Shown here: positions 3,319 to 9,404 of the stretch, one piece after another | Layout: every line of letters begins with the position of its first letter | Numbering within the stretch: the first letter of the stretch is position 1 | Assembly: GCF_046237015.1 (NCBI RefSeq) | Contig: NZ_JBJYIN010000001.1 | Span: 289,094-319,093 of the forward strand | Source of the DNA: Pectobacterium sp. B1J-3 | GTDB taxonomy: Bacteria > Pseudomonadota > Gammaproteobacteria > Enterobacterales > Enterobacteriaceae | Length of the DNA: 30,000 nt | Direction of reading: 5' to 3' | The notes under the pieces: generated by a model | What the model saw: the letters and a program-made list of their open reading frames with translations, nothing else | What the model was told of the DNA's origin: nothing | The model's database searches: none | Position numbers and translations under genes: made by a program

Positions 3319-3380
3319 TTATATCGAAAAAAAGAAGATAAATATTTATCCTCCGACACAAATCAAAGAATTACCGTATA

Positions 3381-3582
3381 TATATCCTAAATAATTCAAG
3401 TTGCATGAAGGCGGAAAGTGAGGGAATCCCGATGAGCTTACTTGAGTAAGTGATTCAGGTGACAAATCTGCCGGGAGCAGATTTGAACGCTGCTTGCCGC
3501 GGCCCCAACAGGGCGAGGCTCATGGATGAGCCGAATAACTAACGTAGCCAACGCACAAGCAGCTTGAAGTATGACGGATATA
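3381..3582. repeat. ERIC element carrying a ~75-80-bp internal insertion (copy B)
   Basis: TATATCCTAAATAATTCAAGTTGCATGAAGGCGGAAAGTGAGGGAATCCCGATGAGCTTACTTGAGTAAGTGATTCAGGTGA ... AGCTTGAAGTATGACGGATATA. The core matches the ERIC1R/ERIC2 primer region. An extra block containing the hairpin AAATCTGCcgggaGCAGATTT interrupts it. Confidence 0.85.
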
Positions 3583-3600
3583 TCACAACTAACACACATA

Positions 3601-4836: not shown

Positions 4837-5949
4837 TCAGAATGCAGTGTGCCTGACACGAAAAGAGCGGGTGATACGATCCCATATTGCGACCAGTTCA
4901 GCATCGCTGTAAGCCGGTGGGGGCAGAGCATAATTATTTAATGTCAGATCAAGATTAGGATGTCGAAAATCCGCAATTTTTTCATTAGCTACAGCGGTAA
5001 ATAGTAACTGTGCTGATGCGTTGTTGGGCGATTTTTCTGACGGGGCAGTGTTAAGCCATTCGCTGGCATCAAAACCAGCTATCTGTGTTTTGCCTTTGCG
5101 TAATGTCCGCGCATTGATACCCGTCAGATAAGACTGAATCTCATGGCTCCGCTCCAGCATACTTGTACTTTCTTTTAAGGAATTATTACTCCAGATCACA
5201 AAAGAAAAGACCGGATCATGCCGATAGACAAAGGTAATATCCTCTTTCGGCTTCCCACTCCCGTCGCGGATAAACCCTTCTGAAATACAGGTTCCCGGCT
5301 GTGTCGGGATCTCATCATCTTTTCGCCCCCTCAGACGGGACATGACATCCTGTAACTCCGCCAGCTTCTGAGGCTTGTCATTCGCCATCCATTCAGGTCT
5401 TCCTGCCTCTTTACGTAACCAAAACGCACGTTCTTTGGCAAAGTTTGGATCTGAGTAATCAGTAATCTCCTGGGAGAGAATAAACGCTACCCCGTCTACG
5501 TACAGATGTCCTTCCAGAACGCGCCCAAAACCAGGCACACTCCCATTTTTATTGCGGTCAAATATCACCGCATTTTCACTGACCCGGTACACCTGTTTGA
5601 GAAAAGGCTGATCCACTTTTCTCACTGTGTGTTCATTCTGTAATTCCTGCTCACGCAGTTGGATACGCTGCTCAAACGCCGGACGATAAAGCCGCTTGCT
5701 GCTGATATTGATTTCATTAATCTGAGCACGATCCGTCAGCGTATTTTCAAAAGAGGCCGGAACCTCAAATACATAGCGCCCCACGCACTGGGCTTTAGTG
5801 GTGGCAAATAGGGTATCGACCATACGTTTTTCCTTGTCCGTTAACGCCGATGGCGTATGCACAAACGTCACATAGTTATGAATATAAAATCCTGCCGCCA
5901 GTAGCACCATCGCCAGCGGAATAAGCCAGGGAAGAAGGACTTTTTTCAT
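4837..5949 (-). CDS. membrane-anchored periplasmic protein, candidate lipase-immunity protein (Tli-like), orphan paralogue
   Basis: 370 aa. The N-terminal MKKVLLPWLIPLAMVLLAAGFYI is a signal-anchor/TM with no lipobox Cys. Its ATG overlaps the stop of the upstream lipase remnant by 4 nt (ATGA). It is identical to the 6453..7559 product except for a ~64-aa central block. The immunity role is inferred from context only. Confidence 0.55.
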   Translation of the reverse strand: MKKVLLPWLIPLAMVLLAAGFYIHNYVTFVHTPSALTDKEKRMVDTLFATTKAQCVGRYVFEVPASFENTLTDRAQINEINISSKRLYRPAFEQRIQLREQELQNEHTVRKVDQPFLKQVYRVSENAVIFDRNKNGSVPGFGRVLEGHLYVDGVAFILSQEITDYSDPNFAKERAFWLRKEAGRPEWMANDKPQKLAELQDVMSRLRGRKDDEIPTQPGTCISEGFIRDGSGKPKEDITFVYRHDPVFSFVIWSNNSLKESTSMLERSHEIQSYLTGINARTLRKGKTQIAGFDASEWLNTAPSEKSPNNASAQLLFTAVANEKIADFRHPNLDLTLNNYALPPPAYSDAELVAIWDRITRSFRVRHTAF

Positions 5950-6194
5950 GGCGTCGGCACCTGTTGCACGATTTTTACTACCGAGCGCACCGTGAACACC
6001 ATCGCGTCCGACAGGTCACTGTAAACCGAACGAGAACGGTCTACGGGGTCCACGGCATAGGCTCTCAGCAGCGCCGCCGAATCAACATTGGACTGTGACC
6101 AGTTATAACCAGCAAGGGGAATGATGTCGTTGTGGAAGCGTCCATCCTCATCCCAGAGGGGACGATGGTAAGAACAGTTTTTGTTGTCGTCCAT
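5946..6194 (-). pseudogene. internally deleted remnant of the lipase gene (82 codons, in frame, no catalytic residues)
   Basis: The product MDDNKNCSYHRPLWDEDGRFHNDIIPLA + GYNWSQSNVDSAALLRAY + AVDPVDRSRSVYSDLSDAMVFTVRSVVKIVQQVPTP corresponds to three segments of the 509-aa protein: residues ~1-27, ~192-209 and the last ~37 aa. The HSMGG, GDGTVP and DHEGAY motifs are all missing. Confidence 0.8.
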
Positions 6195-6452: not shown

Positions 6453-7559
6453 TCAGAATGCAGTGTGCCTGACACGAAAAGAGCGGGTGATACGATCCCA
6501 TATTGCGACCAGTTCAGCATCGCTGTAAGCCGGTGGGGGCAGAGCATAATTATTTAATGTCAGATCAAGATTAGGATGTCGAAAATCCGCAATTTTTTCA
6601 TTAGCTACAGCGGTAAATAGTAACTGTGCTGATGCGTTGTTGGGCGATTTTTCTGACGGGGCAGTGTTAAGCCATTCGCTGGCATCAAAACCAGCTATCT
6701 GTGTTTTGCCTTTGCGTAATGTCCGCGCATTGATACCCGTCAGATAAGACTGAATCTCATGGCTCCGCTCCAGCATACTTGTACTTTCTTTTAAGGAATT
6801 ATTACTCCAGATCACAAAAGAAAAGACCGGATCATGCCGATAGACAAAGGTAATATCCTCTTTCGGCTTCCCACTCCCGTCGCGGATAAACCCTTCTGAA
6901 ATACAGGTTCCCGGCTGTGTCGGGATCTCATCATCTTTTCGCCCCCTCAGACGGGACATGACATCCTGTAACTCCGCCAGCTTCTGAGGCTTGGTGTTAA
7001 GAGACCCAACTCTAACGCCGGCTTTGATAAAACTTTCTTTATCTTTTTGATACTTAGGATCAGATAAATCGATAATATCTTGGCTGAGGATAAACGCTAC
7101 TCCGTCAACGTATAGGTGCCCTTCCAAAGTGCGGCCATATCCGCCCTCACTCCCATTTCTATTACGGTCAAATATCACTGCATTTTCACTGACCCGGTAC
7201 ACCTGTTTGAGAAAAGGCTGATCCACTTTTCTCACTGTGTGTTCATTCTGTAATTCCTGCTCACGCAGTTGGATACGCTGCTCAAACGCCGGACGATAAA
7301 GCCGCTTGCTGCTGATATTGATTTCATTAATCTGAGCACGATCCGTCAGCGTATTTTCAAAAGAGGCCGGAACCTCAAATACATAGCGCCCCACGCACTG
7401 GGCTTTAGTGGTGGCAAATAGGGTATCGACCATACGTTTTTCCTTGTCCGTTAACGCCGATGGCGTATGCACAAACGTCACATAGTTATGAATATAAAAT
7501 CCTGCCGCCAGCAGCACCATCGCCAGCGGAATAAGCCAGGGAAGAAGGACTTTTTTCAT
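6453..7559 (-). CDS. membrane-anchored periplasmic protein, candidate cognate immunity protein (Tli-like) for the adjacent lipase
   Basis: 368 aa with the same N-terminal TM anchor as the paralogue. ATGA overlap with the stop of the 509-aa lipase gene implies translational coupling. Size and topology fit periplasmic Tli-type immunity proteins. Family unverified. Confidence 0.55.
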   Translation of the reverse strand: MKKVLLPWLIPLAMVLLAAGFYIHNYVTFVHTPSALTDKEKRMVDTLFATTKAQCVGRYVFEVPASFENTLTDRAQINEINISSKRLYRPAFEQRIQLREQELQNEHTVRKVDQPFLKQVYRVSENAVIFDRNRNGSEGGYGRTLEGHLYVDGVAFILSQDIIDLSDPKYQKDKESFIKAGVRVGSLNTKPQKLAELQDVMSRLRGRKDDEIPTQPGTCISEGFIRDGSGKPKEDITFVYRHDPVFSFVIWSNNSLKESTSMLERSHEIQSYLTGINARTLRKGKTQIAGFDASEWLNTAPSEKSPNNASAQLLFTAVANEKIADFRHPNLDLTLNNYALPPPAYSDAELVAIWDRITRSFRVRHTAF

Positions 7560-9085
7560 GGTGTCGGCACCTGTTGCACGATTTTCACCACCGAGCGCAC
7601 CGTGAACACCATCGCGTCCGACAGGTCACTGTAAACCGAACGGGAGCGGTCTACGGGGTCCACGGCATAGGCCCCTTCATGATCAACATCGGTCGCTAGT
7701 ACCCCACGAATTCGTGAAGAAGAGGTCCGGATGGCCGTCACTGGCACCGTGCCGTCGCCGGGACTCCCTGCGGAAATCAGCTCATGGGTTCTTAACGGAT
7801 TGAGCTCAATAGTCTTTCCGGCATCCTTCACGGCCAGTTGTGCCGCCTTCACACGCGAAGAGATGGTCTGCGCTTTCCATGTCAAAAATGCATCAGACGG
7901 ATTATCCGCACTCGCACCGTAAAACAGCCAGGTCTGCGGATGGTATTTTCCGTTTAATTCTTCAATGAACTCTTTAACTGGCTTCTTTATTCGGTAAACA
8001 AAAGCTTCCCACTCACTGTTCGTATCCCCCAGCAGCAAATCCTGTTCACACAACCGCCACCAAGCCGTTTTGTTCAGGTAAATCTCCTCATACGGATCGT
8101 TCTTCGGCAAGGACTGGCAAGAACTGCTCTCCTCGACCTTCAGCCAGCCCAGACCATAAGCCCTGCCCGGCAGAAGTTGTAACGGACCAGGGGACTGTGC
8201 CAGCACTGGCATCAGCTTTTCCGCATTATTCCCGATAATCATTCCGGTAACGCCCCGCTCACCGGTTTTCATCCGCCGGTACGCCGCTGGCGAGCCCAGA
8301 TCCGGCATTACGCCATGCACAACTCCCAGAATATTTTCCTGCCCGTTCATGTTCTCCGAGTAGTGACGGGCAACCAGTCCCCCCATCGAGTGGGTGATCA
8401 GGATGACTTTATTGACCGCCAGACGACCGTGATAATCTCTCAGCACCTTGCGGATATACGTTCCCAGCAGCGTCGCCGAGTCCACATTAGACTGCAGCCA
8501 GTTATAACCAAAAACGTGCAGCGGGTATAAAAAACGGTGGCCATGTGCCGTTTCTGTTTCCGTCAGTACCTGTTCCACCGGCTCGTCGCCTAGCCTGATG
8601 CCAGTAAAACGCTGTCTCGCTGTCTGCAGTTTTTCCTCTCTGAAGTAGTTATCTATCAGGATATCATCGTCGTTGAGCAGGTACTGCAACCGGTCAAGCG
8701 CCTCCCCGTAGCTCTTGTAAAATGCGCATCCCCATCCCCGCTCTCGCCGCGAGGGGAATTTTTTTCCGTCCGCACCCTCGTTAAAAATAGCCCCTCGGTC
8801 ATCAACCATCGTGGTCTTCGGATCAAGCAGAAGCTTCCTTTTCTCTGGGCTGGCAAGCGGCCATTTTTTTAGCGACGAAACGCTGAATTGCCAGACCTCA
8901 TCGTCCTTATTTTTCAGGTTTGATCCCATCACCCCGGGAATAAAAATCACCGGGATCACCTTTTCTGGCGGTTTGAGGCAGACCGCCACATAATTCTTTT
9001 CTTTTGCCTGAGGAATAATGTCGTAGTGGAATCGCCCATCTTCATCCCAGATGGGACGATGGTAAGAATAGTTTTCGTCGTCCAT
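7556..9085 (-). CDS. alpha/beta-hydrolase lipase/phospholipase, candidate T6SS Tle-type (PGAP1-like/Tle4-like) antibacterial effector
   Basis: 509 aa with no signal peptide. PVIFIPGVMGSNL (oxyanion-type loop), VILITHSMGGLVARHY (GxSxG nucleophile elbow), SPGDGTVP (Asp) and DVDHEGAY (His) form a Ser-Asp-His arrangement. The gene is coupled to a membrane-anchored partner gene. Lipase fold confidence is ~0.8; T6SS effector role ~0.5. Confidence 0.65.
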   Translation of the reverse strand: MDDENYSYHRPIWDEDGRFHYDIIPQAKEKNYVAVCLKPPEKVIPVIFIPGVMGSNLKNKDDEVWQFSVSSLKKWPLASPEKRKLLLDPKTTMVDDRGAIFNEGADGKKFPSRRERGWGCAFYKSYGEALDRLQYLLNDDDILIDNYFREEKLQTARQRFTGIRLGDEPVEQVLTETETAHGHRFLYPLHVFGYNWLQSNVDSATLLGTYIRKVLRDYHGRLAVNKVILITHSMGGLVARHYSENMNGQENILGVVHGVMPDLGSPAAYRRMKTGERGVTGMIIGNNAEKLMPVLAQSPGPLQLLPGRAYGLGWLKVEESSSCQSLPKNDPYEEIYLNKTAWWRLCEQDLLLGDTNSEWEAFVYRIKKPVKEFIEELNGKYHPQTWLFYGASADNPSDAFLTWKAQTISSRVKAAQLAVKDAGKTIELNPLRTHELISAGSPGDGTVPVTAIRTSSSRIRGVLATDVDHEGAYAVDPVDRSRSVYSDLSDAMVFTVRSVVKIVQQVPTP

Positions 9086-9119
9086 GCGTTAACCTACTGT
9101 TATTTTTAATGATAAAGAC

Positions 9120-9137
9120 ACAGGTTCCATTACCTGT
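9120..9137. promoter_or_regulatory. perfect inverted repeat ACAGGT-N6-ACCTGT in the lipase leader/promoter region
   Basis: Read directly, 35-52 nt upstream of the lipase ATG (9085). The equivalent site in unit 1 (6229-6246, ACAGGATCCATCACCCGT) has lost two arm positions. Confidence 0.3.
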
Positions 9138-9273
9138 CGTCTACGAGAGGTTTATATTAATATGACCAAGCAGCACGTTAAATAATGAACATACATGCGC
9201 TTAATTCATAATGTCCAAGCGAATGATATGCCAAAATCATGGGCATACAGAAAGAATATGCCCATAAACTCAC

Positions 9274-9400
<127 letters not shown>

Positions 9401-9404
9401 TGTT

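Follow-up and report, generated by a model that had tools for sequence, protein, structure and literature searches.

A Tle4-type lipase gene and its immunity gene remote from vgrG, followed by a decayed second unit, in Pectobacterium sp. B1J-3

Organization of the locus

We analysed a 30-kb stretch of the genome of Pectobacterium sp. B1J-3 (positions 289094-319093 of contig C5, in an assembly of 82 contigs; hereafter the window), which carries a gene pair encoding a lipase of the Tle4 (TplE) family and its immunity protein Tli4. Proteins of these families are known as effectors and immunity proteins of type VI secretion systems (T6SS). The locus is a two-unit array, composed of an intact tle4-tli4 pair and, behind it, a tle4 stub with an intact second tli4 gene:

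7556..9085, (-) strand: tle4, intact, encoding a 509-aa Tle4-family (TplE-like) predicted phospholipase effector with Ser233/Asp444/His469
6453..7559, (-) strand: tli4 copy 1, encoding the cognate immunity protein of 368 aa, which has a signal-anchor helix at its N-terminus and the domains Tli4_N and Tli4_C
5946..6194, (-) strand: tle4 remnant, an in-frame 82-codon stub, recognized by blastn of unit 1 against unit 2 and by tblastn
4837..5949, (-) strand: tli4 copy 2, encoding a 370-aa orphan immunity paralogue with the Pfam domains Tli4_N and Tli4_C

The lipase

Judged by its sequence and its modelled fold, the 509-aa protein is a clear and ordinary member of the Tle4 (TplE) family that had previously escaped annotation. 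A preliminary description of the window, made from the nucleotide sequence alone, had reported an open reading frame (ORF) of this length with three lipase motifs and no signal peptide, and the translation bears this out in every point. The N-terminus (MDDENYSYHRPIWDEDGRF...) is acidic, hydrophilic and non-hydrophobic, and thus lacks a signal peptide, while the nucleophile elbow THSMGG (residues 231-236), the Asp motif GDGTVP (443-448) and the His motif DHEGAY (468-473) supply the predicted catalytic residues Ser233, Asp444 and His469. These three residues are invariant across an alignment of 76 Tle4 sequences (homologues of 43-87% identity).

The resemblance to Pseudomonas aeruginosa TplE, also noticed in that description together with the likeness to antibacterial T6SS lipase/immunity pairs, proved to be a true relationship. 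In a phmmer search the lipase matched P. aeruginosa Tle4/TplE (PDB 4R1D chain A) with an E value of 1.3e-43, the alignment spanning residues 41-451 of the lipase and 46-504 of the chain; the elbow vThSMGGLvAR is identical in both proteins and GDGTVP is aligned to GDETVP. Among the Pfam profiles, PGAP1 exceeded its cut-off (31.5 bits versus 24.3) in a 43-residue stretch surrounding the elbow, and LCAT remained just under its own. An AlphaFold2 model built from 76 sequences (pLDDT 91.3, pTM 0.92; an earlier model from 14 sequences, with pLDDT 54.8, was too poor for use) had 4r1d_A as its top Foldseek match (E 2.4e-30; template modelling (TM) score 0.74 by query and 0.73 by target), followed by the LPLA2/LCAT fold at a TM score of about 0.45. 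The family I lipases, including lipase-foldase complexes, reached only 0.25-0.29. As in 4R1D_A, the model has an alpha/beta-hydrolase core interrupted by a cap domain.

It had also been noted that no N-terminal delivery domain can be recognized. This is true but uninformative: over the first ~45 residues the model shows strands that pack into its core (pLDDT 77-93), and this stretch is homologous to the N-termini of Tle4 relatives encoded next to vgrG, which argues that the segment is part of the family fold and not the site of a missing or novel delivery domain. Compared by eye, without use of a profile, with the MIX-type (marker for type six effectors) motif hRxGhhYhh, the N-terminal sequence ..WDEDGRFHYDIIP.. 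does not fit. The proposal that the protein might define a divergent or new Tle-like family did not hold, as it has hundreds of close homologues in Enterobacterales, which public records call only "esterase/lipase family protein" or "hypothetical". In total, homologues number roughly 3,200.

The immunity partner

The stop codon of tle4 and the start codon of tli4 overlap in the sequence ccATGAaa at 7556-7559, and by this ATGA overlap, which was already apparent in the preliminary description, we regard tli4 copy 1 as translationally coupled to the lipase gene. The 368-aa product contains Pfam domains Tli4_N (E 1.4e-43, 148.8 bits) and Tli4_C (E 1.5e-43, 149.2 bits), both of which are full length in either tli4 copy of the locus, and it matches PDB 4R1D chain B (E 3.1e-10) and 5H7Y chain A. 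It starts with MKKVLLPWLIPLAMVLLAAGFYIH, the single N-terminal hydrophobic helix that had been reported, and has no lipobox cysteine. Such a helix is conserved among Tli4 homologues, some of which carry a cleavable signal peptide instead, and it would direct the protein to the periplasm.

A second, decayed unit

The preliminary description gave a correct account of the intact pair but left out the second unit, whose origin is evident from a comparison with the first one. In blastn alignments, positions 6274-6118 correspond to 9164-9012 (85% identity; leader and first ~26 codons), 6111-6057 to 8510-8456 (82%; the GYNWLQSN region) and 6062-4668 to 7672-6283 (93%). What the tle4 stub has kept is therefore the first ~26 codons, ~18 codons (~55 bp) from the GYNWLQSN region and the final 38 codons (114 bp), whereas all three catalytic motifs have been deleted. 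The stub and tli4 copy 2 also overlap by ATGA, at 5946-5949.

The two Tli4 proteins are identical at 343 of 370 residues (93%; BLASTP). They differ in one block only (residues ~134-190) and are identical outside it, and this block is probably a specificity patch. Loss of the toxin with retention of the immunity gene is a well-known pattern, found in orphan T6SS immunity arrays and effector stubs. A similar tle4 stub, encoding a 93-aa C-terminal part, lies ~1.4 kb downstream of an intact tle4 in Serratia sp. NPDC078593 (G154). An orphan immunity gene accompanied by a toxin stub would be the signature of an arms race, and we count it in favour of an effector/immunity function of the locus.

T6SS machinery of the genome

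The genome-wide scan suggested in the preliminary description, which had allowed for a genome devoid of T6SS, revealed one T6SS cluster that is divided between contigs C30 and C19 and includes two VgrG proteins and one PAAR protein. VgrG was found on C19 and C30 only, Hcp on C30 only and PAAR on C19 only (profile searches of the whole genome), and the genome's own DUF4123 adaptor, used as a tblastn query, matched C19 only; the reported lack of vgrG, hcp, PAAR and DUF4123 genes in the window, which lies on C5, was thus correct. By these searches the 30-kb window contains no T6SS gene, its short ORFs not having been profiled for Rhs, DUF1795 and DUF2169.

Contig C30 carries tssB, tssC, putative tssK and tssL, the OmpA-like tagL, hcp, clpV and a vgrG of 805 codons, downstream of which lie genes for a LysM protein of 552 aa and a secreted protein of 317 aa. 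Contig C19 contains genes for a 789-aa VgrG, the DUF4123 adaptor, a 965-aa VasX_N toxin, four paralogous proteins of ~365 aa and the 88-aa PAAR, and continues with tssM, tssA, tssF, tssG, tssJ, tssE and vasL. All 13 T6SS core genes are accounted for, most by profile and some by position only: TssC, Hcp, both VgrGs, PAAR, TssM, TssA, F, G, J, E and VasL were called by profile (TssM with 243 bits, below the curated model cut-off of 388 bits), and TssB, ClpV, TssK and TssL on C30 by position and size alone, ClpV also resembling ClpB.

In relatives with a vgrG-linked tle4 the cluster order is tssC..hcp-clpV-vgrG-tle4-tli4-PAAR, and their Hcp, ClpV and TssC share 78-90%, 66-74% and 87-90% identity, respectively, with the proteins of this genome; on these identities, the T6SS machine is of the same type in both.

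Two further observations concern the spike genes. The vgrG genes at C30:9515-11932 and C19:4976-7345 share 99.7% identity up to codon 680 and diverge sharply in the last 110-125 codons; with their different tails and different cargo, they are, to judge from the sequences, a clean case of tail-swapping by recombination. Moreover, a 113-aa ORF at C19:99169-99510 (L087:1468-1809) shows a weak, truncated PAAR motif (E 4.4e-4); small AT-rich ORFs lie behind it, and it may represent what is left of a PAAR-toxin module.

Co-occurrence with T6SS and a vgrG-detached subclade

To what extent Tle4 proteins are tied to T6SS was examined in 401 genomes, sampled evenly from the GTDB family, with a threshold of E <= 1e-20 for Tle4 relatives. 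TssC is present in 223 of the 401 genomes (56%) and in 28 of the 29 that are Tle4-positive (Fisher p = 7e-7, a value which ignores phylogeny and overstates the case, although the direction is clear). The sole Tle4-positive genome without TssC, Serratia sp. NPDC078593 (G154, L012), encodes two TssM proteins and three or more VgrG proteins. This genome is 100% complete by marker genes though it gave no TssC match, and its TssC may lie in an assembly gap. The sampled genomes thus point to a strong association of the Tle4 family with T6SS.

We then compared the genomic context of 78 relative loci, taken from contigs representing one genome per species and scanned with the VgrG, Hcp, PAAR, DUF4123, TssB/C and ClpV proteins of this genome. 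In a maximum-likelihood tree of 76 full-length Tle4s, the protein from the window falls into a clade of 15 rows with full support (Shimodaira-Hasegawa-like approximate likelihood ratio test (SH-aLRT) 100, stem length 0.45). Within this clade no member is linked to vgrG: for 11 of the 15 the upstream DNA extends over 3 kb or more and contains no vgrG, and the contigs of the other four are too short to tell. Of the rows outside it, 29 show vgrG linkage and 14 do not, with 18 left unresolved (Fisher p = 5e-5 for clade versus rest, ignoring relatedness). In the sister clades, tle4 begins 4-206 bp, mostly 17-40 bp, after vgrG (29 loci). The tree and these contexts suggest that one monophyletic branch of Tle4 has settled permanently outside the vgrG neighbourhood, its sister clades lying directly behind VgrG. 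No literature on a vgrG-detached Tle4 lineage was found at the level of titles and abstracts, in an incomplete coverage of the literature.

Extended by identity look-ups, the subclade comprises 17 loci in 15 genomes, with ORFs of 508-513 aa and 74-87% identity. Its hosts are Pectobacterium sp. B1J-3, Yersinia intermedia, three Erwinia, Pantoea, Scandinavium, Serratia, two Enterobacter, Pluralibacter, Cedecea, two metagenome-assembled genomes (MAGs) and one record labelled Chryseobacterium. TssC was detected in 12 of the 14 subclade genomes tested, the others being G154 and a 3.3-Mb MAG (G421). Truncated or stop-containing copies occur as well (L019, L033, L074, G105, G242).

The flanks differ between most pairs of subclade loci, and the pair has been found between ppsA and ydiK (Erwinia sp. 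E602), tusA and zntA (Cedecea), an extracytoplasmic-function (ECF) sigma operon and betA (Enterobacter) and, here, Nudix and ypfH-like genes. Searches for mobile carriage gave no phage match, and all plasmid matches were below 60% identity.

The only trace of a T6SS gene beside a subclade locus is a degenerate PAAR-like ORF of 134 aa with an arginine-rich, frameshift-like tail, located 1 kb upstream in Pluralibacter gergoviae (L114:8553-8957); we rejected it as a lead, since it is a degenerate fragment with no relation to the truncated PAAR-like ORF on C19. The record CACSKA01, titled Chryseobacterium sp. 18061 (L009, L013, L058), contains three Enterobacterales-type tle4 loci and four enterobacterial-type TssC, and looks like a case of a wrong organism label or a contaminated assembly.

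Leader, repeats and neighbouring genes

Upstream of the array, two further features were distinguished:

9086..9217, (-) strand: tle4 leader, a promoter-like region, by consensus matches only
9274..9401, no strand assigned: ERIC-like (enterobacterial repetitive intergenic consensus) repeat between the tle4 leader and the Nudix gene

The leader contains a sigma70-like match (TGGACA-18-TATGTT at 9217-9188) and, just upstream of the tle4 ribosome-binding site, an inverted repeat (ACAGGTAATGGAACCTGT at 9137-9120); both are consensus matches, no more frequent than chance would predict. Some 79 bp of the leader recur before the stub, with 85% identity (blastn). Among subclade loci, upstream conservation is limited to ~40-90 bp before the ATG. 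A promoter block resembling TGATTTnnGTTAAGTC, located ~75-90 bp upstream of tle4 and with a TAttATgg-like -10 sequence behind it, is shared by 6 of 13 such loci (L008, L009, L011, L012, L015, L020); the leader in the window lacks this block and has ACAGGTAATGGAACCTGT instead, and the 13 upstream regions yielded no link to T6SS regulation.

The ERIC-like repeat has many copies, 80-94% identical, in the Pectobacterium sp. B1J-3 genome and in related genomes. The copies at 9274-9401 and ~3380-3585 bracket the block of ypfH-like gene, second tli4, stub, tli4 and tle4, and may have served as recombination substrates. The array itself is placed between the Nudix/LOG and ypfH-like genes, and the other large ORFs of the window form a housekeeping block (ydi, fadK, fixABCX-like, aroD) or encode a methyl-accepting chemotaxis protein, a thiolase, a YpfH-type esterase and a LOG-Nudix pair. 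Comparison with empty sites gave neither a date nor a boundary of insertion, the genus being represented by one genome in the collection and other genera sharing only the ERIC repeats and fadK.

Delivery and function of the pair

We believe that the locus is probably a stand-alone tle4-tli4 T6SS effector/immunity cassette, followed by a second cassette that has decayed. We infer that export would depend on the T6SS and that the enzyme would act on lipids in the periplasm. Tle4, synthesized in the cytoplasm and lacking a signal peptide, would be mounted on the VgrG/PAAR spike of the single T6SS encoded on C30 and C19 and fired into neighbouring Gram-negative cells, where the Ser233-Asp444-His469 hydrolase with its cap would cleave membrane phospholipids from the periplasmic side. 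Tli4, brought to the periplasm by its N-terminal helix as a tethered or an exported protein, would grip the cap and so protect sister cells, and the second tli4, with its different recognition block, would provide protection against a rival allele.

Several observations weigh against this interpretation. The Tle families of Russell et al. (2013) were reportedly collected, originally, by their linkage to vgrG, hcp or PAAR genes, none of which is present on contig C5. Linkage is, however, a criterion of context and not a property of the protein, which we still file as Tle4. The same situation is met throughout the subclade, since all 17 loci are devoid of vgrG, hcp, adaptor, tss and intact PAAR genes within 10 kb.

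The Tle4-linked VgrGs of the sister clades (~820-832 aa where the gene is complete, with a PAAR gene often following tli4) all have a conserved extension of ~73 aa after DUF2345, of the form ..QKFGGQS..W.sADFavTPk... In enteroaggregative Escherichia coli the transthyretin-like domain of VgrG1 binds Tle1, and by analogy this extension is likely to be the Tle4 dock. Both VgrGs of Pectobacterium sp. B1J-3 lack it and end with 46 and ~30 unrelated residues after DUF2345; a tblastn search against all 82 contigs did not find it elsewhere (best E 0.088). Each of the two VgrGs, moreover, has cargo of its own, the LysM protein on C30 and the DUF4123 adaptor with the VasX_N toxin on C19. A further vgrG could be unassembled in this 82-contig assembly, which limits what can be concluded from such a search.

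A protein of 57 kDa is too large for the Hcp lumen. Given also that the extension is absent, either some surface of a VgrG or PAAR protein would be the carrier, or the toxin is not exported. The question concerns the whole subclade and not just this genome: Serratia sp. NPDC078593 has a subclade Tle4 only, and its VgrGs are also without the extension. A common carrier tail was considered and rejected, as the VgrG tails of five other subclade genomes share only DUF2345 with those of this genome and with Tle4-type tails.

A tentative explanation, which we regard as possible though doubtful, is that the subclade represents a self-contained, horizontally exchangeable two-gene cassette that has switched from the dedicated VgrG extension to a generic docking site. 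Candidates for such a site are the conserved VgrG core or DUF2345, a plain PAAR protein or another cargo, and the effector could then be fired by any host T6SS. This would explain the never-linked state, the many chromosomal sites and the presence of the pair in hosts without a Tle4-type VgrG tail (this genome and Serratia sp. NPDC078593).

The same lack of a matching spike could mean that the locus is disarmed or defensive, with an intact tle4 that is no longer exported for want of a compatible spike tail or adaptor and is on its way to decay, the block being retained mainly for the protection that its two tli4 genes give against Tle4-armed neighbours. Neither VgrG has a Tle4-type extension and nothing similar exists in the genome, the toxin of the neighbouring unit is already gone while its immunity gene remains, and damaged copies are found elsewhere in the subclade. 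The tle4 ORF in the window is nevertheless full length with every invariant residue intact, and the entire vgrG-less subclade (17 loci, 15 genomes) maintains ORFs of 508-513 aa at 74-87% identity. Their preservation despite the absence of vgrG suggests that purifying selection acts on a toxin that is active and deployed; in addition, an unexported toxin with solely periplasmic immunity would be of no benefit. We consider a disarmed locus unlikely.

Still less probable, in our opinion, is export by a route independent of T6SS, i.e. by lysis, vesicles or another secretion system, or an action of the lipase on eukaryotic hosts. The complete lack of T6SS linkage in the 17 loci, the presence of the gene in a MAG without a TssC match (G421) and the activity of P. 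aeruginosa TplE in eukaryotic cells as well (PMC6560169) would be compatible with such a route. Against these stand the missing signal peptide, the tight association of the Tle4 family as a whole with T6SS, and the occurrence of TssC in nearly all subclade genomes tested, where the exceptions are one genome with TssM and VgrG and one 3.3-Mb MAG. The N-terminal ~45 residues, folded into the core and homologous to those of vgrG-linked members, and the absence of phage matches or closer plasmid matches also speak against it.

Finally, the outcome that the preliminary description had named as a refutation, in which the lipase is a housekeeping or secreted enzyme and its partner a Lif-type foldase or a chaperone, suggested at most by weak, sub-threshold matches to generic lipases and alpha/beta-hydrolases in the nucleophile-elbow region, is effectively refuted by the sequence and fold of the lipase, which has no signal peptide and scores far better with Tle4 (TM 0.74) than with foldase-dependent lipases, and by its partner, whose Pfam and PDB matches are those of Tli4_N plus Tli4_C without a lipase-chaperone domain.

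The stand-alone effector cassette, which we prefer, has several implications. In annotation, these proteins can safely be renamed Tle4 and Tli4, and the locus would identify Pectobacterium sp. B1J-3 as a bacterium equipped for contact-dependent killing. The finding is only moderately surprising, since orphan T6SS effectors in themselves are common; the Tle4/Tli4 family was also already known. What appears to be new, from the contexts compared here, is a subclade that is constitutively detached from vgrG, also in genomes without the canonical Tle4-type VgrG tail. The detached branch and its vgrG-linked sisters form a natural matched pair for studying how cargo effectors choose their spike, and for testing whether an effector can turn carrier-agnostic.

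Comparison with known systems

The closest characterized counterpart by structure is the Tle4/TplE (PA1510)-Tli4/TplEi (PA1509) pair of P. aeruginosa, whose crystal structure is 4R1D. Its lipase is homologous to the one described here (TM 0.74, with 28% of residues identical in the fold alignment), with the same THSMGG elbow, a GDxTVP Asp motif and a cap-interrupted alpha/beta-hydrolase fold, and a homologous two-domain immunity protein is encoded directly downstream, as in the window. The P. aeruginosa effector is delivered by the H2-T6SS and encoded in the vgrG2a island with hcp and PAAR genes (PMC6560169), whereas no T6SS gene is linked to the pair in Pectobacterium. It is independent of the Tla3 adaptor, and Tli4 grasps its cap (PMC6560169; PMC5611513). 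The lipase from the window is also shorter (~509 aa versus ~570 aa), and its Tli4 has a signal-anchor-like N-terminal helix.

More closely related are the vgrG-linked Tle4/Tli4 pairs of Enterobacterales (38-58% identity to the lipase described here), including that of T6SS1 in avian pathogenic E. coli, which has been shown experimentally to be an antibacterial pair (PMC5874247). They share the N-terminal segment, the catalytic residues, the tli4 partner and the T6SS cluster type, but their tle4 occupies the vgrG-proximal slot, which in Pectobacterium sp. B1J-3 is taken by the LysM protein gene, tle4-tli4 residing on another contig. In Enterobacter cloacae, an unrelated Tle needs cytosolic Tli for its activation (bioRxiv 10.1101/2023.03.28.534661).

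Eukaryotic LCAT/LPLA2 and PGAP1-like alpha/beta-hydrolases are distant fold relatives (TM 0.42-0.46); their likeness is confined to the hydrolase core, and they have neither an immunity partner nor a T6SS context. With respect to its second unit, an in-frame tle4 stub with a diverged tli4 behind an active pair, the locus shows the same organization as the known orphan T6SS immunity arrays and effector stubs; there is no essential difference, and the stub has retained the ATGA coupling to its tli4.

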